Shown: positions 2,856-19,891 of the stretch, one piece after another | How positions within the stretch are numbered: the first letter of the stretch is position 1 | How the letters are laid out: every line of letters begins with the position of its first letter | Virus record (IMG/VR): IMGVR_UViG_2939121850_000005 | DNA: 20,990 bases | Strand: one strand, 5' to 3' | Origin: a virus | Lineage: Duplodnaviria > Heunggongvirae > Uroviricota > Caudoviricetes | The notes under the pieces: generated by a model | Told to the model about the DNA's origin: nothing | Databases searched by the model: none | What the model saw: the letters and a program-made list of their open reading frames with translations, nothing else | Translations under genes and position numbers: made by a program

Positions 2856-3074
2856 TCAAAGAGAGAGCGCCACCTGTCCTGATTTAATTGGATGCGGCTG
2901 AACCGGATTTGACTCTTTTGGCGTTGCAATCGAACGAACAAAAGTTTCATGGGTAACAAAAGTATGGCTGCAGTTAATGTTCTGGCACTGGTTGTAACGC
3001 TCTTTGGTCAATGAAGATACCTGAAAACTGCTGCGAGTATGGGCGGCACTTCCACACAGTGGGCAAATCATCAT
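2856..3074 (-). CDS. ogr: Ogr/Delta-family zinc-finger late-gene activator
   Basis: 72 aa from the MMICPLCGS start (P2 Ogr is 72 aa); Cys pairs CPLC...CQNINC; GGGGAG about 10 nt upstream; lies at the prophage end as in P2. Confidence 0.8.
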   Translation of the reverse strand: MMICPLCGSAAHTRSSFQVSSLTKERYNQCQNINCSHTFVTHETFVRSIATPKESNPVQPHPIKSGQVALSL

Positions 3075-3255
3075 TTTTCGAGTTCTCCCCATTTTTGCTA
3101 AATTCACAATAATGATACCGCATTATTCCATTTTGCAAACTTAAAAGTTCTCCATTGCGAAGAATCATTCCATTTCGAAATCATCAATCCTCACTTCAAG
3201 CTCCAGACTGGTCGTAAAACCGTTATCCGGGCTGACGGTATGCGTCAGAGTCGTA

Positions 3256-4734
3256 ATGGTCCATTCCGCATCATCTAACGAAGCTGACTTAAACCCTAAC
3301 GTCGCCAACCGCAACAAAGGCCCGCGCCGTCAGCCGGAAAAGAATGTCTTCACCGATGAACAGATTGAGAAGCTGGAAGAAATCTTCCATTCCTCCATGT
3401 TCAACTACCAGCGCCACTGGTGGGAAGCCGGAAAAACCAACCGCATCCGCAACCTGCTGAAGTCACGCCAGATCGGCGCGACCTTTTACTTTGCCCGTGA
3501 AGCCCTGATTGACGCCCTGCTTACCGGACGTAACCAGATTTTCCTTTCCGCCAGTAAGGCACAGGCCCACGTCTTTAAGCAGTACATCATCGACTTCGCC
3601 AAAGAAGTGGATGTGGAACTGAAAGGCGATCCGATGGTGCTTCCTAACGGGGCCACGCTTTACTTCCTCGGCACCAATGCCCGCACGGCCCAGAGTTATC
3701 ACGGCAACCTGTATCTGGATGAATATTTCTGGATACCGAAATTTCAGGAGCTACGCAAAGTGGCTTCCGGTATGGCTATTCACAAGAAATGGCGGCAGAC
3801 CTATTTTTCCACACCATCCAGCCTGACCCACAGTGCTTATCCGTTCTGGTCCGGTGCGCTGTTCAACCGTGGACGCAACAAAGCCGACAAGGTGGACATT
3901 GATCTGTCCCACAGCAATCTGGCCCCCGGCCTGCTGTGCGCTGACGGGCAATACCGCCAGATAGTCACCGTGGAAGATGCGGTGCGCGGCGGCTGTAACC
4001 TGTTCGACCTTGACCAGTTGCGCATGGAATACAGCCCGGACGAATACCAGAACCTGCTGATGTGCGAGTTTGTGGACGATCTCGCGTCCGTGTTCCCGCT
4101 CAGCGAACTACAGGCGTGCATGGTGGACAGTTGGGAAGTCTGGACCGACTTTCATGCACTGGCGCTGCGCCCGTTTGGCTGGCGCGAAGTGTGGATCGGT
4201 TATGACCCGGCAAAAGGTACGCAGAACGGCGACAGCGCCGGATGCGTGGTGGTGGCACCGCCAGCCGTGCCGGGCGGTAAGTTCCGCATTCTTGAGCGTC
4301 ACCAGTGGCGCGGGATGGACTTCCGCGCCCAGGCTGACGCCATCAAAAAACTGACTGAACAGTACAACGTGACATACATCGGTATCGACTCAACCGGCGT
4401 CGGTCACGGGGTTTACGAGAACGTGAAAGCGTTTTTTCCTGCCGTCCGGGAGTTTGTCTACAACCCCAACGTTAAAAATGCCCTGGTACTCAAGGCCTAC
4501 GACATTATCAGTCACCGCCGTCTGGAGTTTGACGCCGGACACACCGACATAGCGCAGTCATTTATGGCAATTCGTCGCGCCACCACCGCCAGCGGCAACC
4601 GCCCGACCTATGAAGCCAGCCGCAGCGAAGAAGCCAGCCATGCCGATCTGGCGTGGGCAACAATGCACGCACTGTTTAACGAGCCGCTGCAGGGCGAGTC
4701 CGCCAATACCAGCAATATTGTGGAGATTTTTTGA
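3256..4734 (+). CDS. P: Terminase ATPase subunit (P2 gpP family), possibly N-terminally truncated
   Basis: 492-aa ORF; Walker-A-like KSRQIGATF and Walker-B-like LYLDEYFW, then a nuclease-like C-terminal half; about 100 aa shorter than P2 gpP as I recall it; stop overlaps the Q start. Confidence 0.75.
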   Translation: MVHSASSNEADLNPNVANRNKGPRRQPEKNVFTDEQIEKLEEIFHSSMFNYQRHWWEAGKTNRIRNLLKSRQIGATFYFAREALIDALLTGRNQIFLSASKAQAHVFKQYIIDFAKEVDVELKGDPMVLPNGATLYFLGTNARTAQSYHGNLYLDEYFWIPKFQELRKVASGMAIHKKWRQTYFSTPSSLTHSAYPFWSGALFNRGRNKADKVDIDLSHSNLAPGLLCADGQYRQIVTVEDAVRGGCNLFDLDQLRMEYSPDEYQNLLMCEFVDDLASVFPLSELQACMVDSWEVWTDFHALALRPFGWREVWIGYDPAKGTQNGDSAGCVVVAPPAVPGGKFRILERHQWRGMDFRAQADAIKKLTEQYNVTYIGIDSTGVGHGVYENVKAFFPAVREFVYNPNVKNALVLKAYDIISHRRLEFDAGHTDIAQSFMAIRRATTASGNRPTYEASRSEEASHADLAWATMHALFNEPLQGESANTSNIVEIF

Positions 4735-5762
4735 TGGGAAAGAGTAAGAAGAACCGCGCTGTGTCGACGAACCAGATTCAGCATAAAAGCCAGACTTCAG
4801 CCGAAGCATTCAGCTTTGGCGATCCCGTTCCTGTTCTGGACCGCCGCGAACTGCTGGACTATGTGGAATGCGTACAGACAGATCGCTGGTATGAGCCGCC
4901 AGTGAGTTTTGACGGACTGGCGCGAACCTTCCGCGCTGCCGTGCATCACAGTTCACCAATTGCGGTGAAATGCAACATTCTGACCAGTACCTACATCCCT
5001 CACCCGCTTCTCAGCCAGCAGGCTTTTTCACGTTTTGTGCAGGACTATCTGGTATTTGGTAACGCTTACCTGGAGAAACGCACGAACCGGTTCGGTGAAG
5101 TTATCGCCCTTGAGCCTGCTCTGGCAAAATACACCCGACGTGGGTTAGACCTGGATACCTACTGGTTTGTGCAATACGGTATGACAACCCAGCCGTATCA
5201 GTTCACGAAAGGCAGCATCTTTCATCTGATGGAACCGGATATCAACCAGGAGATCTACGGCCTGCCCGGTTATCTTTCTGCTATTCCGTCAGCCCTGCTC
5301 AACGAGTCCGCCACGTTGTTCCGCCGTAAGTATTACATTAACGGCAGCCATGCAGGCTTCATCATGTATATGACCGATGCCGCGCAAAACCAAGAGGATG
5401 TGAACAACCTCCGCAACGCGATGAAAAGCGCCAAAGGTCCGGGCAACTTCCGCAACCTGTTTATGTACTCGCCTAACGGCAAAAAGGACGGGCTTCAGAT
5501 TATCCCGTTGTCAGAGGTCGCAGCGAAGGATGAGTTTTTGAATATCAAGAACGTGAGCCGGGACGACATGATGGCGGCACACCGCGTGCCGCCGCAAATG
5601 ATGGGGATAATGCCGAATAATGTTGGGGGTTTTGGGGATGTGGAAAAGGCTAGTAAAGTCTTTGTCCGAAATGAATTAATTCCGTTACAAAAAAGGCTTA
5701 TAGAAATTAATACTTGGCTAAATGAAAAAATCATAGCATTTAATGATTACTCATTAAATTAG
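4734..5762 (+). CDS. Q: Portal protein (P2 gpQ family), 3' end recoded by AT-rich DNA
   Basis: ATG at 4734 overlaps the P stop (TGATG) with GGAGA upstream; 342 aa; base composition falls from about 53% to 27% GC near 5640 within the last 40 codons. Confidence 0.75.
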   Translation: MGKSKKNRAVSTNQIQHKSQTSAEAFSFGDPVPVLDRRELLDYVECVQTDRWYEPPVSFDGLARTFRAAVHHSSPIAVKCNILTSTYIPHPLLSQQAFSRFVQDYLVFGNAYLEKRTNRFGEVIALEPALAKYTRRGLDLDTYWFVQYGMTTQPYQFTKGSIFHLMEPDINQEIYGLPGYLSAIPSALLNESATLFRRKYYINGSHAGFIMYMTDAAQNQEDVNNLRNAMKSAKGPGNFRNLFMYSPNGKKDGLQIIPLSEVAAKDEFLNIKNVSRDDMMAAHRVPPQMMGIMPNNVGGFGDVEKASKVFVRNELIPLQKRLIEINTWLNEKIIAFNDYSLN

Positions 5763-5785
5763 ATAAAAAGGGGTTAATCACCCCT
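5763..5785 (-). terminator. Intrinsic terminator for the KAP NTPase gene
   Basis: Hairpin aggggt-taatc-acccct at 5769..5785, followed on the minus strand by TTTTTAT; lies directly between the convergent Q and KAP genes. Confidence 0.5.
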
Positions 5786-5792
5786 ATAAAAA

Positions 5793-7445
5793 TCACAAAA
5801 ATCGCCTTACACGCATTTTATTAATCGCAGATTCATCTCCAATTCTTATCAAGGCATCCCTTGCCTTTTTCCCTATACGATTCATTCTATCAGAACCATT
5901 ACTAAAATTTCCGAATTTAAGCGCCGTAGCTATTATTGAATCACCACCATCAAGAATGACATTTTTAAATAATTGATAGTAGTCATCTACTGAAGCAGCA
6001 TCCAATATTTCCTCATGTCTATCAGACCAACCATTCTGACCTGATAATTTCTTAAGAACATCATATATTGAACCATCAATATTTATAATCTTAGAATAGG
6101 CTTGAATTTTTGACAACAACTCAGTATCTCTTACGGGATGAACATTCACATAAATAGATTGAACATATTCCTTTAGAGCATCGTTACCATAATTAATAAA
6201 CTGTTCAATCAATTCACTCGCCTTAGCATTCTCTCCGAAATCCCTATATAGTCCGACAACATTATCTAAATCACTTGGAGTCACATATTTCATCCCATCA
6301 ACCACCGCTTGATATAGCTTGTCAACAACCTGATTTTGATTGTCATCAAATGAATTATGAAAGAACTGCCATGCCTCAGATAAGGATCCTCGTTTATTAT
6401 CACGCGTAATCTCCTCATTCCTTAGGCTTATTTGTCTTTGGAAACTGCTCTTATCAAGATAGCCATATCTAACCATATCAATAAGAACCTCATCAAGATC
6501 ATTCGTTTTTCTATATCCATATTTAAGCAAGGTATTAAGCCAGACTTTCTCATGGCCTTCTTCCTTGTCATTATAAGTATATATATTCCTCACTCCCCTA
6601 ATATATTCTAGTGATGGCACATCTCCCTCTGGAGAAAATCCGTAATGGCTCCAACAATACAGAGTTAATGAATGCGCAACTTCATTTGAAATTGTCTCAA
6701 CATCACCTATAATATTTGGTGTTAAGGACACGAAAAAACGTTCTATCTTTTTTAAGATTCGAATATTCTTGATACCTAAAGAAATGGAATATTTACTTAA
6801 CAAGTTATAAACATGAGAATCACCTTTATAGGCTATATCTGCGCATTCTTCTGGTGTTGGATTGTAAGTGATATCTCTATCAATGACCTTTTCTTTATAA
6901 GTAGAATAATCCTCCATACTAGCTGTGCCATTGTTAAGCAATAGAACCACCTTACAATCCTTCTGCTCTTTTAATAGAGATACTAGCCCTAAAACATCTT
7001 TAACATCTAAATTTTTGCCACGCCTTTCTAAGTCATCTATTACTACAATCATTTTAGAAACGGTCAGAAATGACATTGCTTCAAGTGTCGTAGAGAAGTT
7101 TTTTACAACAGGAACTTCTTTTAACAAACCTGCTGCTTTTCGAGAAAATGATTCAAAAAGTCCACTTGCGTTTGTTGTTGCTGTCTCCAAATCAGGTTTA
7201 TTTCCAATATATTCCTTTGTAATTGCATTCTCAAAAATAGAATACTTTAAAGAATCTAGTGAATTTATACCAAAAAGAGAGACATAACTATATCTATTAA
7301 ATGCAACCTTATCTTTATTATCTTTTAGGAACGTATTCCAAGTATAGGTTTTACCAATTCCCCATTCACCCTGTATAGCCATTACTTCTGGTTCTGTAGA
7401 TGAGATAAAATCTGACAACTGTTCTTTGATAAACTCTAAGGACAT
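5793..7445 (-). CDS. KAP-family P-loop NTPase (candidate defence cargo)
   Basis: 551 aa from the ATG at 7445 (GGAGAA upstream; the six-frame track extends it to 7637); Walker A GEWGIGKT (nt 7347..7370) and KAP-type VVIDDLERR motif; about 33% GC. Confidence 0.7.
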   Translation of the reverse strand: MSLEFIKEQLSDFISSTEPEVMAIQGEWGIGKTYTWNTFLKDNKDKVAFNRYSYVSLFGINSLDSLKYSIFENAITKEYIGNKPDLETATTNASGLFESFSRKAAGLLKEVPVVKNFSTTLEAMSFLTVSKMIVVIDDLERRGKNLDVKDVLGLVSLLKEQKDCKVVLLLNNGTASMEDYSTYKEKVIDRDITYNPTPEECADIAYKGDSHVYNLLSKYSISLGIKNIRILKKIERFFVSLTPNIIGDVETISNEVAHSLTLYCWSHYGFSPEGDVPSLEYIRGVRNIYTYNDKEEGHEKVWLNTLLKYGYRKTNDLDEVLIDMVRYGYLDKSSFQRQISLRNEEITRDNKRGSLSEAWQFFHNSFDDNQNQVVDKLYQAVVDGMKYVTPSDLDNVVGLYRDFGENAKASELIEQFINYGNDALKEYVQSIYVNVHPVRDTELLSKIQAYSKIINIDGSIYDVLKKLSGQNGWSDRHEEILDAASVDDYYQLFKNVILDGGDSIIATALKFGNFSNGSDRMNRIGKKARDALIRIGDESAINKMRVRRFL

Positions 7446-7573
7446 GTGTTTTCTCCTAGAAAGATAGCCCCGTATTATAACCCTAGAATTATAAAAGTAA
7501 TGAGCGCGCGCTCGTATCCCCGCCACGCCTGCCCGCTTTATGTAGTGTTTTTCATGCACCTGCATGACATAGG

Positions 7574-7599
7574 CAAAAGCCCGCCAGTTATGACGGGCC
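7574..7599 (-). terminator. Intrinsic terminator downstream of the 883-aa gene
   Basis: Stem gcccg / cgggc with a 10-nt loop at 7579..7598, followed on the minus strand by CTTTTG. Confidence 0.45.
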
Positions 7600-7735
7600 T
7601 CAGCATAAAAGATCCCTAAACGATCATGCGTTTTCATGCAGCATAGTTATGCAGGACTATCTATACATCGACAATCTCAGCTTGACCTCATCAGTCGACA
7701 TCAATCTATATGTCGAGTAACTTGACAGGAACCAT

Positions 7736-10387
7736 TCATTGATCCACAAGAGATAAACTAATCTTTTGCTCAACAGCGTTGAAATCGTTCTCTATACGCA
7801 CCCATAGTACTTTACCTTTGGAATACTCATTCATACGGTTAAAACCTGCAGGCAGTTTTGATTTATGTATTAACCCTGTAATTTTTCCTGTAAAGTTAAC
7901 AAAAACACCATATCTATGATCGCAATTCCGTACAGTACCTTCTAATATATCACCTGACTGATACCTAGCTTCGAACTCTGCCCATTCAGGATCGCGTATC
8001 TTTTCCGCAAATGACTTAACAGCATCAATTGCAGGTTGGATATCAGTTAGCCCGTGATATTCATCTCCAGAAATAAATTCGCCTGAAAAACTTGCTATCG
8101 TTTCACGTTGATTTACAAGAAAATCAACTAACTCCTTAGCATTAGCACTAACCATTTCTTTATTATACTGATTTTGAACTGACCCCATCCTTTCAGAGAC
8201 TCTTCTGGCAATTTGCTCAGTAGGGAAAAGAGTATCTTCTGCTAACGCGGCTAGATAGCTAATATTTGAGAGCATATCCAAATGCACAAACCCAGCCGAG
8301 GATAATCTTAGTAAGTCTTCATCAGTTATTCCAGTCTCTCTAAAATCCTCTGAAACTAAACATTGCCCCTGAAGTAAATAATCGACCTCACGAGTTATAA
8401 CCTTTGGAGAAAAACCAAACTTGACTAATCCGTTTTTTAACGCAAACAAAGGAAAGTATCCTTTAAGTCCAGTTGGACCACTTACCCCAAAATTATTATA
8501 GAACCATTTCAAAATTGCAAACCTAGTAAAATGATTAGCCCTCTCATCATCTTTTTCCGTCGAAAATATATTTTTAAGGTATGAGTTATCGCTATCATAA
8601 AATCGACGATTTAATCGTAATAACACTCTGGTCACAATATGTAAAGGAAGCGCATAGCGTCCTTCACTTTGCCTTATTTTTAAAAACTCACCTTCAGTAA
8701 TATGCCCACTAGTGCAGAACTCCAAGAAAATTTCCAAAGCCCTTCGTATATTTCTTCCTGAAAGACCAACAATCATCCTTCTTATTTGTGCATCATGTAC
8801 AAAAATAGAGTTTGCGATTGATGTTAAATAATATGAACGTTCGTCCTTGCTATATTCAACATTAAAGCCGTTAGGAAGTGAATATGAAAGAGTATTGCTA
8901 GCACTAGTTTTTGTCATTTCTTTAAGAACAAGCTGCACTCTTGAATGAAGAACATAATTAAACAACGGTGGTTCAATACGGAAAACCATATCTTTTAAAG
9001 CGGTGTCAAGAGGAGGACGATCTCTATAATTATCATAAGTTTCTTCTCTCAAGGGAAGAATTATTAGTGATCTAAACTCATTTTGGAGCCATTGAGCAGC
9101 CTGAAACATTAGCAACTGTTCAGACAAAGTTCTTTTATCACAATTATCAAGAACTATTACAACTAATTTACCGCGCTCTGTCCCACAATACCGAGTATAG
9201 GCAAGTGCAGTTTCATGTAAATCTGACTTACATTCCCTAATAATTTTAAACAATTCCTTATTATATTCATCCCCAGAAAGTAATTGCCCCTCCCCCTTAT
9301 TAAACTTATTTATCTCAACAGAATAGAGTTTTTTTAAATTATCCAACAAATCAAAATCAATATCTGGGTAAGCTAACTTACATTGTTGAATTATTTTCCC
9401 TCTAAGCCAATCATAAACTTCCCCTGAAGAAACCGGGGATTCATTCATATTAAAACGTAACCAAAGAGTGGTTTTAATAATATCATTTGGGAGCGCGACT
9501 TCTTTTAAATGATCAATGAAAGTTGTTTTTCCTGAACCAACACTGCCAACAATCAATAAAATTTTATTTTCAAGCGGAGATCGCCCTCTAAATTTTTCAA
9601 TTATTTCTTTGGGATTATCAGTATCTTCAATTAATTTAGAATCACTATTGCTTACTGGTTGAGCAGCCCTGATAATTTTATCTATTGGCTGGGTATAGCG
9701 GTCCCTGCGCTTAGATGAAATATACCCTTCACGAGCGATAAACTGTCGATCATTCAGTGTATTTGGATTAAATATATTTCCATACTCTGATATAAGTGTT
9801 GCACCAAAACTATTATGCCCCACCTCTTCGTTCTGAGCTGCCTTCCCTCCCATCATTCTCCTAGGCTTCCAGAATTTTCTAGGTTTTGATTTAGCTATGA
9901 ATTCCTCAGATAATTTCGAGAGAGCTGTAAACGAAAATTCCTCTAAAAAATTTGCACAATTTTTATCAACAGGTGATATCTCATTTAATCGGTAACTACC
10001 CTGGTTATTATCCCATTCCCCCGCAAGCCACTCATATCCATCAGTAGCTATGATTTTGGTAAGAGGATTCATACCACTCTCATATTTTGCATTCAACTCT
10101 AGCGCATATAATCGTGCTTCCTGAAAAGCGCTATCTAAATCCTCTCCAGGAGTTTTTGCTTCTACTAGTAATACAGGAACACCATTTATAATTACAAGAT
10201 AGTCTGGATAATATATTTTTTTGGTACTACCTTTACCTATCTCTAAGCTTTTAATATTTCTTTTAGTGAGTATATACTCTTTATTTATGCCAAGCCCATC
10301 AACAGATTTCTTAGTCAGAAACGGATAAATTATTTTTTGTTCGATATCACTTTCTGTTTCCTTTACTTTATTTATCTTACTACTCAT
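7736..10387 (-). CDS. Multidomain protein: restriction-endonuclease-like PD-(D/E)xK motif, P-loop NTPase and C-terminal S1/OB domain (candidate defence cargo)
   Basis: 883 aa; YPDYLVIINGVPVLLVEAK (aa 60-78); Walker A GSVGSGKTT (nt 9521..9547); Walker B VVIVLDNCD (aa 409-417); S1-like signature GDILEGTVRNCDHRYGVFVNFTGKITGLIHKSKL...GKVLWVRIEN in the last 75 aa; AAGGA RBS; about 33% GC. Confidence 0.75.
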   Translation of the reverse strand: MSSKINKVKETESDIEQKIIYPFLTKKSVDGLGINKEYILTKRNIKSLEIGKGSTKKIYYPDYLVIINGVPVLLVEAKTPGEDLDSAFQEARLYALELNAKYESGMNPLTKIIATDGYEWLAGEWDNNQGSYRLNEISPVDKNCANFLEEFSFTALSKLSEEFIAKSKPRKFWKPRRMMGGKAAQNEEVGHNSFGATLISEYGNIFNPNTLNDRQFIAREGYISSKRRDRYTQPIDKIIRAAQPVSNSDSKLIEDTDNPKEIIEKFRGRSPLENKILLIVGSVGSGKTTFIDHLKEVALPNDIIKTTLWLRFNMNESPVSSGEVYDWLRGKIIQQCKLAYPDIDFDLLDNLKKLYSVEINKFNKGEGQLLSGDEYNKELFKIIRECKSDLHETALAYTRYCGTERGKLVVIVLDNCDKRTLSEQLLMFQAAQWLQNEFRSLIILPLREETYDNYRDRPPLDTALKDMVFRIEPPLFNYVLHSRVQLVLKEMTKTSASNTLSYSLPNGFNVEYSKDERSYYLTSIANSIFVHDAQIRRMIVGLSGRNIRRALEIFLEFCTSGHITEGEFLKIRQSEGRYALPLHIVTRVLLRLNRRFYDSDNSYLKNIFSTEKDDERANHFTRFAILKWFYNNFGVSGPTGLKGYFPLFALKNGLVKFGFSPKVITREVDYLLQGQCLVSEDFRETGITDEDLLRLSSAGFVHLDMLSNISYLAALAEDTLFPTEQIARRVSERMGSVQNQYNKEMVSANAKELVDFLVNQRETIASFSGEFISGDEYHGLTDIQPAIDAVKSFAEKIRDPEWAEFEARYQSGDILEGTVRNCDHRYGVFVNFTGKITGLIHKSKLPAGFNRMNEYSKGKVLWVRIENDFNAVEQKISLSLVDQ

Positions 10388-10400
10388 ACTCTAGTCCTTA

Positions 10401-10434
10401 TCAAACCAAAAGGCACTTAATTTCTTAAGTGCCT
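10401..10434 (-). terminator. Terminator-like hairpin in the leader of the 883-aa gene
   Basis: Perfect 10-bp stem aggcacttaa / ttaagtgcct with a 4-nt loop, followed on the minus strand by TTTGGTTTG, about 15 nt upstream of the RBS. Confidence 0.4.
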
Positions 10435-10896
10435 ATAATATAGCGTCTGGTAATTTAATAAAAGTCACATGTCAATATCAAAATAAAAAGGCACCTTGAG
10501 ACTAGACCCATAAAAACAAAAAGTCAACATGTTATTTCATACAGTGTGAAAATTAAAGATTTTACAAAACAATAAGTTACAAATCAAACGCGCAATCACA
10601 TGTTGACTGACATCACATATTTAAACTGAAGTAGTAACTTCATTTGCCTTATAGTCTCATGTAACAATTACACTGTTCCTTTAGAGAAGGAACCTTATCT
10701 CTATGAGAACTGTTATATAAACACTTGATGTAAAAAAGCTCAATACCATAGCTACCGCCCATGAGGCTACAGATTGCTGCTTGGGGATATAGAAAGCACA
10801 AATTATAGTAACGATCTGATTCAATAGAGTTCATTTCCATCAAGCTAATCTTCTAGCTTTTATCGATCATTATTTCAATGCACATACAGACTCCCT

Positions 10897-11085
10897 TTAA
10901 CTGGAAACTTCCGTTGACCGGCTGTATTCATGGCTGCGAATTTTCGCCATCAGCTCGTCTGTCAGTTCGGACACCCACTGGATAGCCAGCCGCTTTTCTT
11001 CGTCGCTGCACTCACTAGCCGCTACAAGCTTGATAAAAAAATCAATACGCTGAAGCTTCAATGACTCCAAAAGATAGTCCTGCAT
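10897..11085 (-). CDS. Small hypothetical protein (62 aa) downstream of a LexA box
   Basis: ATG at 11085 preceded by AGGAGG with a 4-nt spacer (MQDYLLESLKLQRIDFF...); identity not recognised. Confidence 0.45.
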   Translation of the reverse strand: MQDYLLESLKLQRIDFFIKLVAASECSDEEKRLAIQWVSELTDELMAKIRSHEYSRSTEVSS

Positions 11086-11133
11086 CTTCCCTCCTATCAT
11101 TACACGGATACACAAAAACTGTATATACACCCA

Positions 11134-11149
11134 CTGTTTATATAAACAG
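11134..11149. promoter_or_regulatory. LexA (SOS) box CTGTTTATATAAACAG
   Basis: Perfect palindromic CTGT-N8-ACAG about 50 nt upstream of the small ORF on the minus strand; TATAAT directly adjacent on the plus strand; a weaker CTGTATATAC half-box lies at 11119. Confidence 0.5.
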
Positions 11150-11243
11150 TATAATAGGAACAGAAAAATGTAAAACTGTTTTTTGTCAGTTAATTGGATG
11201 TACTGATGTCGGTCAATAAAGCACAAAATGTTAAACAGCAGCC

Positions 11244-13637
11244 TTAGTACCATTGACGCCATTTGTCATCTTCCTGCAGCCTCTGGTTACGGTAAAAAAT
11301 ACGTAAACCGGCACCGGATGGAATGCTGCCGCCACGCAGAAGCAAATCAATCTCAGATGCACTACCTTCAAACCCCCTGGTTGTCAGTTCTGCCTCAAGC
11401 TGCAGGCGCTGCTGCTCCAAAATACTCTGTATGTATGCTTTTTTCCGCTTCGGTTTTACCAGTCTCAACCTGGCTGTCAGCTCCCGCCGTTCCTTCTGGC
11501 CCATGTTGTGGAGATATTCCTGCAGCTCCTTCTCATCCATGGTTTTAATATCGGGTAAATCACCCCCTGATTTGTTCAGATTTTCAACAGGGGGACAGTT
11601 ATTGCCACGAGTCCAAGGGGCGCAAGCGCCCTGGTCGGCTGCCGCCTCCTGAACGTCAACGGCTTTACGAACCATTTTCCACTTCACTGCATGAGTGCAG
11701 ATCTTGCCCTCTGCAATGGGTGACCAGATGCCATAAATACGAATGCCATGATCGCCATAGGCGGTCGGCTCTTCGTTGATTTCATAAGCGGTTCTGATGA
11801 GGTGATATTTACGGGGAACCAGTACGCCGCCCTGCTTCATGATGTAGGTGGCAAAACAACCAGCATCAGCAGCAGCCAGAATGGCATCAAGACGCGGGTT
11901 ATCCAGTACCGGCGCACCTGCTTTTTTGTCACCCTGTTGCCTTGCCGCCTGACCAGCCAGCAAGCGAAGTTCACGGTAAGCCTGACGCCCCGGAATACCA
12001 AAGAAGCGGAATTGCTGAACACGATGCAGAGACGCCCAGGCATTCACGTATTCAGCGTTATCACGCAGAGATTTACCCGTTTCCTTGCTGATCTCGCCAG
12101 CCAGACCACGACCGTCAATGTTCTTACTGATATATTTCGCGATGTAGCTTGTCGGCGTTCCTTTGCGCGGGTTAATCAACTCAGACTTAAAGCGCGGCCC
12201 AGTGTTATTGCCCAGCTCCTCGCGGTCTTCACGGATGGCAAACTTACGCAGTAATGCAGTGATGGCACGGCGGTCTTTTTTGCGCATGAAACACAACAGG
12301 TGCCAGTGAACTGTGCCATCATGATGCGGCTCAGCCACCCGCACGCCATACCAGCGCAACCCGGCTTTGTGCATCGCCTTACGAAATGCAGCAAACATAC
12401 CGACCAGATAATCGCTGCTTTGTCTTACCGTCGCGTTTGTCCAGGTCGGGTTTGGTCTGCCGTTATTTAGCGTGGAATGGAAACGCGACGGACAGGTGAT
12501 AGTGTAGAAAACGGCGCAGTCACCGCGCATTTCCGCGATAAGCTCCAGACCTTTAACACAGGCCATCATCTCATTGCGGCGATGCGCAGGGTTGCTGCTG
12601 CTGGCGTTTACCACATCCTCCATGTCCAGCGTGTCGCCGTCTTCGTTCACCAGTTCATGAGAACGGAAAAACTCCAGCGACTTACGACGCTGCTCACGTT
12701 TATGCATCACGGCTTCATAGCTGACATAAGGAGATGCTTTTTTGCTGACCAGGCAAACAGCGCGCAACTGCTCTTCCCGCCATTCGCAACGCATCTTCCA
12801 TAATTTCCGATACCACCAGTCGGCGCACAACATACGCGCCAGCGAACCCGGAATGAGTTCATAGGGCACGGGTTTACGGCGGTTTCTTTTCCGACGGAGT
12901 TGCTCAAACGCAGGTGGGATGACATCCAGACGCAGGGTTTCCGCTGCCACCTTTTCCCATGTCTTGCGGATTTCTTCTGGCTTAACGTCATCGGTGGCAT
13001 ACAAATCACCACAAGCTGCATCAAGGCACATACTCATATGCGCAGCTACCAGGGTGGAAAGGCGTTTCACCTGATCCTGACTCATTTCAGGCAGGATCAG
13101 CAGGCCGTCCAGCCCTTCATGGCTTGCCATAAAGCGAAAAGATGCAGATAGCTGACTGTCGCGTACATGCTCCAGTCGTTCCAGACATGGCTTAATCGTC
13201 TCACGTAAATAGCGGGAATAAGCCTTTGGCCTGCCCAGGCTGCTGAAGTATTCAATACGTTGCATCAGCGGCTTGCTGATATGGGAAGGCTGGGCGTTGA
13301 CGTCCGCCAGAATGACCATGTCTGAATTAAAACGCTGCTGCTCATGCGCCAGCTTTGCCCGGCTAATGAGCTTATCCTGCTCCATTTCGCGCTGGACAGG
13401 ATCACGTGATTCATTAAAGAAATAACGCTCCCAGACCTGATCACTCAGTGCCTCGCGGCGCAACTGTTCCTGCTCGTTATCGGCAGCGTACAGAGTGATC
13501 AGGTTTGAAAGCGTAGAAACCGGCGCAACTTCCGCCGGGTCCAGATAAGGGTTAATGGCCTTTTTCGGGCTGTTCCATGAGAATGCTGCGGCAGCCTCGT
13601 TAAAGCCGCAGCAGTTGTTCATATCGGCATGACTCAT
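11244..13637 (-). CDS. A: Replication initiation endonuclease (P2 gpA family, HUH rolling-circle Rep)
   Basis: 797 aa; HUH motif [10 protein letters not shown] and double-tyrosine motif [13 protein letters not shown]; GGAG RBS; ATGA overlap with the upstream dam stop. Confidence 0.8.
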
Positions 13638-17577: not shown

Positions 17578-18522
17578 ATGACTGAACCAACCAATAAAGA
17601 TAGCGAAATAAAAAAACACCTATTAGAATTTCTTGATTCACAGTCTGAAAATATAGCAAAACACTTCTACTCTCATATAAAAGACTTAATAGAAGCAGGA
17701 GAGCTTTCTGAAGCTCATAATAACCTAGCGCTAATTGAAAAATACATAACTAGGCCACCGATGGATGAAGAACCCAATATAAATGAAAATAAAGCCAATA
17801 AAAGAAAAAATGTAAAATCACTTGAACCTAATAATTATGTAGAACATATAATACAATTAGAAGAACGAAACAGCATATTAACTCTACAGTTAGAGCATTA
17901 TACTCAGGATCTTAATAGAAAAAACGCAATAATCGAAAACAACGTAAAACAAATTAATTCATTGATTAGTGAAAATAAGGAACTCCGTAGCCAAGTACAG
18001 CAACAAAGAATCGATGATAAAATCCCCACCTATGTTAACGATGTTAAATCAGATCTTGGTAGTGATGACAAACATTTTATATTGATGTCTATTATCTGGT
18101 CTATTGCAGGGGTATTTTTTGGCTTCCTTGCAGTAGTATCTGCTTTTTTTACATTATACATGAACTTAGATTTAAAAAATCTCACTAACCTTCAGTTAAT
18201 ATATATCTTCACGCGAGGATTAGTTGGAATCGCCATTCTTTCATGGCTATCATATATCTGCCTTAGTAACTCAAAAAAGTACACACATGAATCGATCAGG
18301 CGAAAAGATCGTCGACATGCTTTGATGTTTGGTCAAGTTTTTTTGCAGATATACGGTTCTACAGCAACTAAAGAGGATGCAATAGAAGTCTTTAAGGATT
18401 GGAATATTTCAGGTGACTCTGCATTTTCAGGTCAGACAGAGCAACCACCGAGTTTTGCGTCATTTTTGAATACAATCAAAGACAAAGTTAAAGTAACTGG
18501 AAGTGATAAAGAAACAGATTAA
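17578..18522 (+). CDS. Coiled-coil / two-TM membrane protein of unknown function (candidate exclusion or abortive-infection moron)
   Basis: 314 aa starting 11 nt after the CI-like stop; charged coiled-coil N-terminal half and two hydrophobic helices (FILMSIIWSIAGVFFGFLAVVSAFF, GLVGIAILSWLSYICL); strongly AT-rich. Confidence 0.6.
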   Translation: MTEPTNKDSEIKKHLLEFLDSQSENIAKHFYSHIKDLIEAGELSEAHNNLALIEKYITRPPMDEEPNINENKANKRKNVKSLEPNNYVEHIIQLEERNSILTLQLEHYTQDLNRKNAIIENNVKQINSLISENKELRSQVQQQRIDDKIPTYVNDVKSDLGSDDKHFILMSIIWSIAGVFFGFLAVVSAFFTLYMNLDLKNLTNLQLIYIFTRGLVGIAILSWLSYICLSNSKKYTHESIRRKDRRHALMFGQVFLQIYGSTATKEDAIEVFKDWNISGDSAFSGQTEQPPSFASFLNTIKDKVKVTGSDKETD

Positions 18523-18575: not shown

Positions 18576-19891
18576 GGGTCTTCCCTTGTTGTGGTGGCTG
18601 AAGGCATGATAATGGTGTATTTAATCGCCAGAGGTCACCGCCATGGACGAAAAGTCCCTCTACGCTCATATTCTCAACCTGTCCGATCCGTGGCAGGTAA
18701 AGTCCCTTTCTCTCGATGAAAATGCCGGTTCTGTTACTGTCACTATTGAGATCGCTGAAAACACCCGGCTAGCCTGTCCGACCTGCGGTAAATCCTGTTC
18801 TGTTCACGATCACCGTCATCGTAAATGGCGCCATCTTGATACCTGCCAGTTCACCACTATTGTTGAAGCCGATGTTCCACGAATTATGTGTCCGGAGCAT
18901 GGCTGCCTGACGTTGCCTGTTCCGTGGGCTGGCCCCGGAAGCCGGTATACGTTGCTATTCGAATCGTTCGTTCTCTCATGGCTGAAAATCAGCACCGTTG
19001 ATGCTGTCAGGAAGCAACTTAAGCTCAGTTGGAATGCGGTTGACGGCATTATGACCCGGGCAGTTAAGCGAGGTCTTGCCCGGATAAAAAAGCCATTATC
19101 CGCCCGTCATATGAATGTGGATGAGGTCGCCTTTAAAAAAGGACATCGTTACATAACGGTGATCTCCGATCGCGATGGTCGGGCGCTGGCCTTAACGGAT
19201 GATCGCGGCACAGAGAGTCTTGCCGGCTATCTTCGCACGCTCACTGATGGGCAGTTGCTGGCTATCAAAACGCTCTCAATGGACATGAACGCGGGCTATA
19301 TAAGAGCAGCGCGTATCTACTTACCCAGTGCGGTTGAGAAAATCGCCTTTGACCGCTTCCATGTGGCGAAGCAACTGGGCGAGGTAGTTGATAAAACCCG
19401 TCAGAATGAACATCCGCACCTCCCTGTTGAAAGCCGACACCAGGCAAAAGGAACCCGCTTCCTGTGGCAGTACAGCGATAAGTGGATGACCGAATCCCGG
19501 CAGGAAAAGCTGATGTGGCTGCGTGCACAGATGAAGCTGACGAGCCAGTGCTGGGCGCTGAAAGAGCTGGCAAAGGATATCTGGAACAGGCCATGGAGCG
19601 AGGAAAGACGGAGTGACTGGCAGAGATGGTTGGCGCTGGCGGCTAACAGTGACGTTCCCATGATGAAAAATGCCGCGAAAACGATAGGAAAAAGGCTGTA
19701 CGGGATCCTGAATGCGATGCGACACAGTGTCTCAAACGGAAATGCGGAGGCACTTAACAGCAAGATCAGGCTGCTGAGGATAAAAGCCAGGGGATACCGA
19801 AACCGGGAGCGCTTTAAACTGGGGGTGATGTTCCACTACGGAAAGCTGAATATGGCGTTCTGAGCCTTCCCACCATGATCGGGGAAGACCC
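18576..19891 (+). mobile_element. ISL3-family insertion sequence (1316 bp)
   Basis: Imperfect terminal inverted repeats beginning GGGTCTTCCC at both ends (left 18576..18604; right 19864..19891, reverse complement); one transposase ORF; flanked by an 8-bp direct repeat. Confidence 0.75.
18643..19863 (+). CDS. ISL3-family transposase
   Basis: 406 aa; N-terminal Cys/His zinc-finger (CPTCGKSC...CPEHGC), DDE-type core, C-terminal SNGNAEALNSKIRLLRIKARGYRNRERF typical of ISL3 transposases; GAGGT RBS. Confidence 0.75.
   Translation: MDEKSLYAHILNLSDPWQVKSLSLDENAGSVTVTIEIAENTRLACPTCGKSCSVHDHRHRKWRHLDTCQFTTIVEADVPRIMCPEHGCLTLPVPWAGPGSRYTLLFESFVLSWLKISTVDAVRKQLKLSWNAVDGIMTRAVKRGLARIKKPLSARHMNVDEVAFKKGHRYITVISDRDGRALALTDDRGTESLAGYLRTLTDGQLLAIKTLSMDMNAGYIRAARIYLPSAVEKIAFDRFHVAKQLGEVVDKTRQNEHPHLPVESRHQAKGTRFLWQYSDKWMTESRQEKLMWLRAQMKLTSQCWALKELAKDIWNRPWSEERRSDWQRWLALAANSDVPMMKNAAKTIGKRLYGILNAMRHSVSNGNAEALNSKIRLLRIKARGYRNRERFKLGVMFHYGKLNMAF

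Follow-up and report, generated by a model that had tools for sequence, protein, structure and literature searches.

What is carried between the portal gene Q and the replication endonuclease gene A of a 186/P2-like prophage, and do the two large NTPase genes found there make up one anti-phage system, two, or none? The question is raised by IMG/VR record IMGVR_UViG_2939121850_000005 (Caudoviricetes), a stretch of 20,990 nt which is the window analysed here and to which all coordinates refer. A first-pass annotation, made from the sequence alone, had placed in the Q-to-A interval a single AT-rich island whose two genes were candidates, jointly or separately, for an undescribed defence system. 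Our analysis indicates that the genes are instead two unrelated, self-contained single-gene cassettes, one on each side of cos in a defective 186/P2-like prophage, and that each is probably a lone anti-phage defence. Both lie on the minus strand and together they occupy the AT-rich region, one (7445..5793) encoding a soluble KAP-family P-loop NTPase of 550 aa, the other (10387..7736) an 883-aa protein in which a nuclease, an NTPase and an S1 domain are joined; the first-pass length of 883 aa was exact and that of the smaller protein, 551 aa, was one residue too long. The position itself, next to cos and between homologues of A and Q, is as first recognised a published one, the gpA-gpQ cos-proximal hotspot of P2-like phages (Rousset et al. 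2022, Cell Host Microbe, PMC9122126), at which P2 carries old/tin (Rousset 2022, PMC9122126) and 186 carries tum/orf97.

The anomalous composition of the interval is real. In the composition profile the terminase and portal genes lie at ~0.53-0.59 GC, the stretch from ~5600 to ~11200 at only 0.33-0.39, and gene A is back at ~0.53. By segment the values are 0.55 for the body of P and Q, 0.22 for the final 72 nt of Q (5691-5762), 0.337 for the KAP cassette (5763-7502), 0.352 for the right-hand cargo (7654-10896) and 0.528 for gene A; GC at third codon positions (GC3) is 0.57-0.69 in P, Q and A but 0.26 in each large cargo gene. The drop thus begins inside the 3' end of Q and persists until just before A, as had been described, at a level of ~0.34-0.35 rather than 0.30. 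The final 70-160 nt of Q (4731..5762, plus strand; phrog_68, E 8.5e-176) are AT-rich and divergent, with a C-terminus unlike that of the Q protein of CP019275.1, and the left cargo junction is therefore placed inside the 3' end of this gene. Gene A, the flank on the other side, runs from 11244 to 13637 on the minus strand (phrog_91, E 6e-289, and so annotated by PGAP). Between the two the low-GC stretch is broken twice, by a 151-bp block at 7503-7653 (GC 0.517) and by a small open reading frame (ORF) at 10897-11085 (GC 0.476).

The first of these breaks contains cos. A cohesive end of the 186 type lies at 7511..7529 on the minus strand (GGCGTGGCGGGGATACGAG, where 186 has GGCGTGGCGGGGAAAGCAT), within a conserved core and flank (7503..7653, GC 0.52) that is common to many P2-like phages and shows 83-89% DNA identity to 45 phage records. 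The site was located by reading this conserved block and with a degenerate pattern, and the locus was aligned with those of 186, Salmonella, Providencia and E. coli (186 and five other prophages); a search for the P2-type cos (GGCGAGGCGGGGAAAGCAC, allowing up to 3 mismatches) found no match. Backbone conservation covers ~125 bp on the A side, the 19-nt end and ~8 further bases, after which cargo begins at once. Since the two genes are separated by cos and its conserved flank, what had been taken for one island is two insertion slots. The Q-cos slot holds the KAP gene, at a place where 186 has just 176 bp, and the cos-A slot, which is that of old, tin and tum, holds the 883-aa gene; in the packaged genome the two genes would sit at opposite ends.

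The contents of these slots vary between otherwise syntenic related prophages, in keeping with the variability that had been expected of the Q-to-A interval. The Q-cos slot is empty in the 186, Providencia, Yersinia and Enterobacter elements and occupied by KAP homologues in E. coli and Salmonella. Since it holds unrelated cargo in other P2-like elements, it is a small hotspot itself. In a Hafnia element the slot contains a 123-aa ORF (L017 8021-8392), and in CP019275.1 (L016 4195-5869) an unrelated, frameshifted gene of ~558 aa, the C-terminal part of which is hydrophobic. The published table treats A-Q as a single hotspot, whereas here cos divides it into slots with independently exchanged cargo. 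Within the cos flank, ~50-70 nt from the cohesive end, a minus-strand hairpin with a T-run (GCCCGTCATAACTGGCGGGC TTTT, 7573-7599) could be a terminator that stops transcription of the cos-A slot before cos, or a piece of the terminase recognition region.

The two neighbours might still be components of one system, for example with the KAP protein regulating the nuclease-NTPase and both genes transcribed together through cos when the genome is circular or a prophage. The KAP gene is present in 123 complete E. coli genomes and the 883-aa gene in 109, and in all 109 of the latter the two are adjacent; they share a strand, and the same three-gene arrangement, with the same protein accessions, is given as one arrangement by Rousset et al. 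in their Table S5A (PMC9122126). All 109 copies of the 883-aa gene, however, are at least 99% identical and therefore represent one recent element, not a repeated association. Elsewhere the genes occur apart. KAP homologues are found in the Q-cos slot without the 883-aa gene at 99.6%, 80% and 42% identity, the 80% copy in an intact O25b:H4 prophage that carries other cargo and the 42% copy in Salmonella prophages, and KAP copies in Shewanella and Pseudomonas lie in non-P2 contexts. Likewise the 883-aa gene fills cos-A slots where KAP is absent, in intact P2-like prophages from Hafnia and Enterobacter (89-90% identical), Yersinia (78%) and Providencia (51%); its homologues also adjoin a HigBA toxin-antitoxin pair in P. 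aeruginosa, lie beside the integrase of an unrelated prophage in Bradyrhizobium and stand alone on a 511-kb metagenomic contig. In addition cos and its flank intervene, the KAP gene has a leader and a terminator-like hairpin of its own, and the 883-aa protein was curated as a single-gene system, #23 'HSDR_N_2/KAP_NTPase/NB-ARC', NLR-like with a nuclease effector (Rousset Table S5B, PMC9122126). Given that each gene is found without the other in several prophages and genera, a joint two-gene system is very unlikely, and of the two alternatives left open by the first-pass annotation the separate one is favoured.

The smaller of the two proteins (5793..7445) is a KAP NTPase by Pfam, as had been called, scoring 30.2 bits against KAP_NTPase PF07693 (cut-off 20). 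Its N-terminal Cdc6/ORC-like NTPase module covers residues ~1-250; the C-terminal half is all-helical and less conserved. The family's Walker A (GxxGxGKT) and Walker B (hhhhDDxxR) motifs are conserved, and G26, G29, G31, K32, T33, D137, D138, E140 and R141 are invariant in the family alignment, the Walker B motif reading DDxER. The interval between the motifs is filled by a low-confidence, non-hydrophobic insert (84-119), and there are no transmembrane helices (maximum Kyte-Doolittle(19) 1.35), such helices being usual in many KAP proteins, though not universal. The family is sizeable, with 1025 matches of ~550-560 aa at 42-45% identity, mostly from Gammaproteobacteria among the named hits; a tblastn search of 50,697 phage records returned distant matches alone, at 25-30% identity. 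The start codon is set by a match to PHROG 4740 from residue 1 and by an AGGAG Shine-Dalgarno sequence 7 nt before the ATG. A 614-aa form called by PGAP (from 7637) was rejected: its 64 extra codons translate cos and the conserved flank (7446-7637), PHROG and homologue alignments begin at the internal ATG, and for other strains the PGAP call is itself 550 aa. The 65-nt leader between cos and the start codon (7446..7510, minus strand) contains two perfect TATAAT hexamers beside the Shine-Dalgarno sequence and suggests a putative promoter with a weak -35, which the scan that picked up the hairpins did not flag. The 99.6% and 80% copies of the gene keep this leader, and that of the 42% copy from Salmonella is a different one. 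At the other end, where KAP and Q converge, the KAP stop codon is directly followed by a terminator-like hairpin with a T-run (5769..5785, minus strand; AGGGGTGATTAACCCCT TTTTATC).

Tmn is reportedly a KAP NTPase defence, described by Gao and colleagues in 2020. The 550-aa protein shares the KAP P-loop domain with Tmn, EF_KAP and PifA (plasmid F), with nothing detectable beyond the NTPase domain, and it lacks the transmembrane helices that EF_KAP and Tmn have; no Tmn match was found in PADLOC at E<=0.01. A PDB sequence profile search with the KAP family gave nothing significant, and NCBIfam held no match to the protein. Its best defence-database match is the PADLOC candidate PDC-S49 (E 7e-28, 96 bits, residues 6-428 against 9-440 of the 624-position profile), which is a candidate only, with partial coverage and a modest score, and no paper mentioning PDC-S49 was found in the literature. 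Identity to the representative of system #8 'KAP_NTPase' of Rousset et al. is 24%, at the N-terminus only. A closer parallel is Reve, a validated single-gene KAP/ATPase defence of P4 hotspots (bioRxiv 10.64898/2026.02.27.708500). The NTPase modules of the two are homologous (BLASTP 26% identity over 227 aa, E 3e-12; residues 4-249 by hhalign, probability 98%, E 2.5e-13), the top structure-search hits of both are ORC folds, and each is a single soluble protein (586 aa for Reve) in a cos-adjacent hotspot of the P2/P4 system. The likeness ends with the module: no similarity is detectable between the C-terminal halves, and Reve sits in a P4 satellite whereas the KAP gene sits in a P2-like element. 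Other KAP NTPases with uncharacterised C-terminal regions are Walker-B-dependent defences, EF_KAP among them (2025, PMC12632615). In the soluble KAP protein the variable helical C-terminal half would carry specificity or effector function, and the protein would probably act like the single-protein defences Reve, EF_KAP and PifA, with a requirement for ATP hydrolysis.

The cargo of the cos-A slot (7736..10387) is a single-gene module of a different kind. Pfam recognises HSDR_N (33.2 bits, cut-off 25.1), S1 (30 bits, cut-off 22) and P-loop matches at 271-433, which agrees with the nuclease-ATPase-S1 composition first proposed. At the N-terminus is a PD-(D/E)xK nuclease of the HSDR_N type with the triad D62, E76 and K78, followed by a conserved linker, a Cdc6/ORC-STAND/KAP-like P-loop NTPase with its Walker A motif at 281-289 (G281-T289) and Walker B at D414, a winged-helix/helical region and a C-terminal S1 domain (~801-883). 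In 35 sequences, with identities as low as 46%, the triad, Walker A and D414 never vary. AF2 gives a confident model, the core of which is structurally matched by Cdc6/ORC, plant NLRs, Apaf-1/CED-4 and RADAR RdrA, the remaining parts by S1 domains, the HsdR N-terminal nuclease and several MarR-type winged helices; no solved structure spanned the whole architecture (TM-score <=0.23). A single polypeptide thus unites an effector with a central P-loop NTPase, helical and winged-helix domains and, at the C-terminus, a putative sensor, in an NLR-like layout. From type I HsdR, the source of its PGAP name, the protein differs in having no SF2 helicase/translocase domain and no adjacent HsdM or HsdS genes. 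NCBIfam gives domain-level S1 and EcoAI N-terminal matches only, PADLOC v2 gives P-loop-level matches only, with no Avs or bNACHT HMM among them, and the tblastn search of the same 50,697 phage records found nothing. A direct comparison with the KAP protein showed no sequence similarity.

This is a large family in which conservation extends over the whole protein, with 724 matches at 47-55% identity, from Proteobacteria and Acidobacteria among the named hits. Residues 250-883 were also searched against 50%-identity cluster representatives, and the hits (1357 at E <= 0.001) were then domain-typed. All typed relatives retain the nuclease, even at 27-30% identity, and it is the tail that varies. 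Conservation is lowest in S1, at 31% identity where the core has 59-64%, and S1 forms the tail in 42 of the 90 representatives that have nuclease and core; ~10 have an untyped tail, and ~27 of ~810 aa, about one third of the full-length representatives, have none and keep the nuclease. In two relatives an RRM stands exactly at the S1 position, once, at 801-880, in P0273 (887 aa; L023 6001-8664) and as two RRM_1 domains in P0262 (990 aa). S1 and RRM are unrelated folds that bind single-stranded RNA (ssRNA), and their exchange at one position therefore points to the binding of single-stranded nucleic acid as the job of the tail. The S1 domain of the 883-aa protein resembles domains 3 and 4 of ribosomal S1, and its best matches include RNase R, PNPase and RNase II, each with a C-terminal S1. 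The cores of two distant relatives pass the Pfam KAP_NTPase threshold, and two others show sub-threshold nSTAND5. The P0273 gene adjoins radical-SAM/HxsD genes and PrkA on its 511-kb prokaryotic contig.

The cos-A slot also carries possible regulatory elements. A perfect LexA-box core (11134..11149; taCTGTTTATATAAACAGtg) lies between A and the 62-aa ORF, at the position equivalent to the LexA site in the p95 SOS promoter of 186, and LexA boxes follow A in seven other loci (186, L005, L009, L016, L017, L019 and L020). An imperfect LexA-box-like element (10529..10544, minus strand; CTGTATGAAATAACAT) abuts a TTGACT hexamer ~150 nt upstream of the 883-aa gene and is kept, 142-157 nt upstream, in the 78-90% identical cassettes of Hafnia, Enterobacter and Yersinia. 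LexA may bind this second element, and from the two boxes SOS control of the 883-aa cassette is probable. In the 5' leader a 10-bp hairpin with a U-run (10411..10434, minus strand), 24 nt before the start codon and kept in the Hafnia and Enterobacter cassettes, is possibly an attenuator of the gene or a terminator of upstream transcription. The overall fold of the leader RNA is not significantly more stable than its shuffles (z -1.68), the local hairpin alone being notable, and an Rfam scan of 5600-11300 at E<=1 gave no match. The 62-aa ORF (10897..11085, minus strand; phrog_698) is conserved and comes after A in many 186-like prophages; it is backbone, not cargo. The 883-aa cassette directly adjoins it in the window prophage, from which the DinI/Tum-like gene that follows this ORF in most related 186-like prophages (L004, L005, L009, L016, L017) is absent. 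A 64-aa ORF at 10649-10843 was considered spurious, having a TTG start, no PGAP annotation and a location that is poorly conserved across cassettes.

How might the 883-aa protein act? We propose an NLR-like 'effector-NTPase-sensor' protein in which the C-terminal winged-helix and S1 module, able to bind ssRNA or DNA, would recognise infection-associated nucleic acid. Recognition would license ATP-dependent oligomerisation of the Cdc6/ORC-STAND-like NTPase, and in the oligomer the N-terminal PD-(D/E)xK nuclease would be activated to cut DNA, resulting in abortive infection or in direct destruction of phage DNA, with expression probably under LexA/SOS control. Extended to the family, this would make of it an NLR-like receptor that reads nucleic acid and not protein, whose swappable tail senses an RNA or single-stranded DNA intermediate of the phage, or acts as a built-in decoy of ribosomal S1 for S1-binding phage factors, and in P2/186-like prophages switches on an ATP-gated, SOS-controlled nuclease; we offer this extension tentatively, as one possibility. 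The main rival of the sensor model takes the protein for an RNA-directed enzyme in which S1 or RRM holds RNA and the NTPase powers or gates the nuclease; the targets would be rRNA, tRNA or transcripts of host or phage, probably still as a form of abortive infection. RNases are known among PD-(D/E)xK enzymes, RADAR RdrA, one of the structural neighbours of the core, has an RNA-loading state, and both the presence of RNase R, PNPase and RNase II among the best S1 matches and the exchange of S1 for a second ssRNA-binding fold suit such an enzyme; nuclease domains of the HSDR_N type, on the other hand, come from DNA-cleaving restriction enzymes, and the third of full-length representatives that keep the nuclease have no recognisable RNA-binding tail. 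We regard RNA cleavage as rather unlikely.

Avs and other bacterial NLR-like STAND defence proteins, described by Gao and colleagues in 2020 and 2022, reportedly carry N-terminal nuclease effectors. The 883-aa protein is like Avs in its N-terminal nuclease, its central switch NTPase with helical and winged-helix parts, its variable C-terminal module and its carriage as mobile prophage cargo. Unlike Avs, it has a core at least as near to Cdc6/ORC and KAP/RdrA, and its C-terminus is an S1 domain (in relatives an RRM or nothing) where Avs has TPR-like repeats that bind phage proteins; no such repeat sensor is present. Within the family it is the tail that differs, the nuclease being constant. A 2026 STAND survey and a 2025 modularity preprint make no mention of S1, HsdR or KAP.

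That either protein defends its host is suggested by hotspot position, mobility, the AT-rich cargo signature, domain logic and the published success of ~38-75% for such loci. Protection was conferred by three of eight additional P2-hotspot systems (Rousset 2022, PMC9122126), and by eight of 11 putative P4 systems and six of eight unknown P4 loci (Rousset 2022, PMC9122126; 2026 preprint, bioRxiv 10.64898/2026.02.27.708500). Several findings pull the other way. System #23 is absent from the constructs tested by Rousset et al. (PMC9122126), and we found no published experiment on either protein in the literature. As the first-pass annotation had stated, neither protein matches a named, validated PADLOC v2 system over its full length, although the KAP protein does match the candidate PDC-S49 and shares a module with Reve. 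The 883-aa core scores higher against Cdc6/ORC than against NLRs and has no NB-ARC or NACHT match in Pfam, so that 'NLR-like' here denotes architecture and not proven ancestry. Its S1 or RRM could bind substrate rather than sense, since RNase R and PNPase hold substrate RNA by S1, and an RNA-binding tail is not essential to core activity, since the ~810-aa clade has none detectable. One core position of the imperfect LexA-like box is mismatched, and boxes of this kind are frequent by chance (8 found against 5.9 expected). Finally, decay of the host prophage makes it uncertain whether its cargo is under selection in this lineage.

One or both genes could serve some purpose other than defence, such as counter-defence, help in replication or packaging, addiction or host fitness. 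The hotspot is known to carry partition systems and toxins too (Rousset 2022, PMC9122126), the P2 success rate of three in eight is low, and the KAP gene always lies directly beside cos and the portal gene. Both genes are, however, patchily distributed among otherwise syntenic prophages, which argues against a core phage function for either; outside phages there are homologues too, that of the 883-aa protein beside HigBA and others at chromosomal sites without identifiable phage genes nearby; and the combination of a nuclease with a switch NTPase, like the KAP NTPase, matches the domain logic of validated defence proteins. A role outside defence accordingly seems improbable, and lone defence by each cassette remains our preferred explanation.

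The state of the prophage bears on whether the genes do anything at all. The element is 186/P2-like, as had been concluded, with CI, CII, Fil and Dam (PHROG and PGAP), and is a remnant rather than intact. A partial late-control gene D abuts an N-terminally truncated large terminase gene (PGAP), so that the entire D-to-P structural block is deleted. This left part (2856-4734) comprises ogr (2856-3074), the D fragment (~3165-3296) and the truncated terminase gene (3277-4734), and the prophage adjoins ybjL (935-2620). The two cargo genes could then be inert passengers decaying with their carrier, to which the loss of the structural block, the presence of ISKox3 and the few genomes with insertion sequence (IS) insertions or a split 883-aa ORF would all be congenial. 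Both ORFs are nevertheless intact, with their catalytic residues, and identical to widespread alleles (P0001 and P0121), and ~105 of the 109 copies of the 883-aa gene are uninterrupted; that the genes are inert is most improbable. The interrupted E. coli records, with an IS2/IS3-family insertion in the island or a split 883-aa ORF, are NZ_CP163067.1, NZ_AP024560.1, H104 and H105, which suggests occasional inactivation. A second AT-rich patch lies between CI (16631/16688-17566) and the integrase, a region described as a minor P2 hotspot in the hotspot papers. The gene there (17578-18522, plus strand, GC ~0.30-0.35, GC3 0.26) specifies a protein of 314 aa (phrog_2628). Its N-terminal region is coiled-coil-like, its transmembrane segments are strong (Kyte-Doolittle 2.35), and PADLOC, Pfam and NCBIfam gave no family for it. 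The transposase gene of ISKox3 (ISL3 family; 18643-19863, plus strand) lies between this gene and the phage integrase gene (19923 onward).

The locus, its arrangement and the NLR-like reading of the larger protein are already published as catalogue entries, and the KAP class has recent validated examples. Since the hotspot and both genes had been catalogued, the locus is not a discovery as such, and to call it undescribed was an overstatement in view of system #23 and of PDC-S49. What is added here is the two-slot structure around cos, the independence of the genes, the fixed nuclease with its variable S1/RRM tail, the LexA boxes and the remnant state of the prophage; the note of Rousset et al. 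on system #23 mentions neither exchange of S1 and RRM tails nor LexA boxes. If confirmed, the two slots bear on how P2/186 systems are delimited and cloned, and pairs of genes that straddle cos should not be assumed to cooperate. LexA boxes mark the entry to the cos-A slot and also move with the cassette, from which it would likewise seem that prophage defence cargo is in some cases gated by SOS. The KAP gene is an additional putative member of the emerging class of single-protein KAP NTPase defences. The 883-aa protein would, if confirmed, represent a widespread single-gene family in which a restriction-type nuclease and a Cdc6/STAND/KAP-like switch NTPase are combined with swappable RNA-binding tails, and the family is a candidate for a form of innate immunity, distinct from CRISPR and CBASS, that senses RNA.

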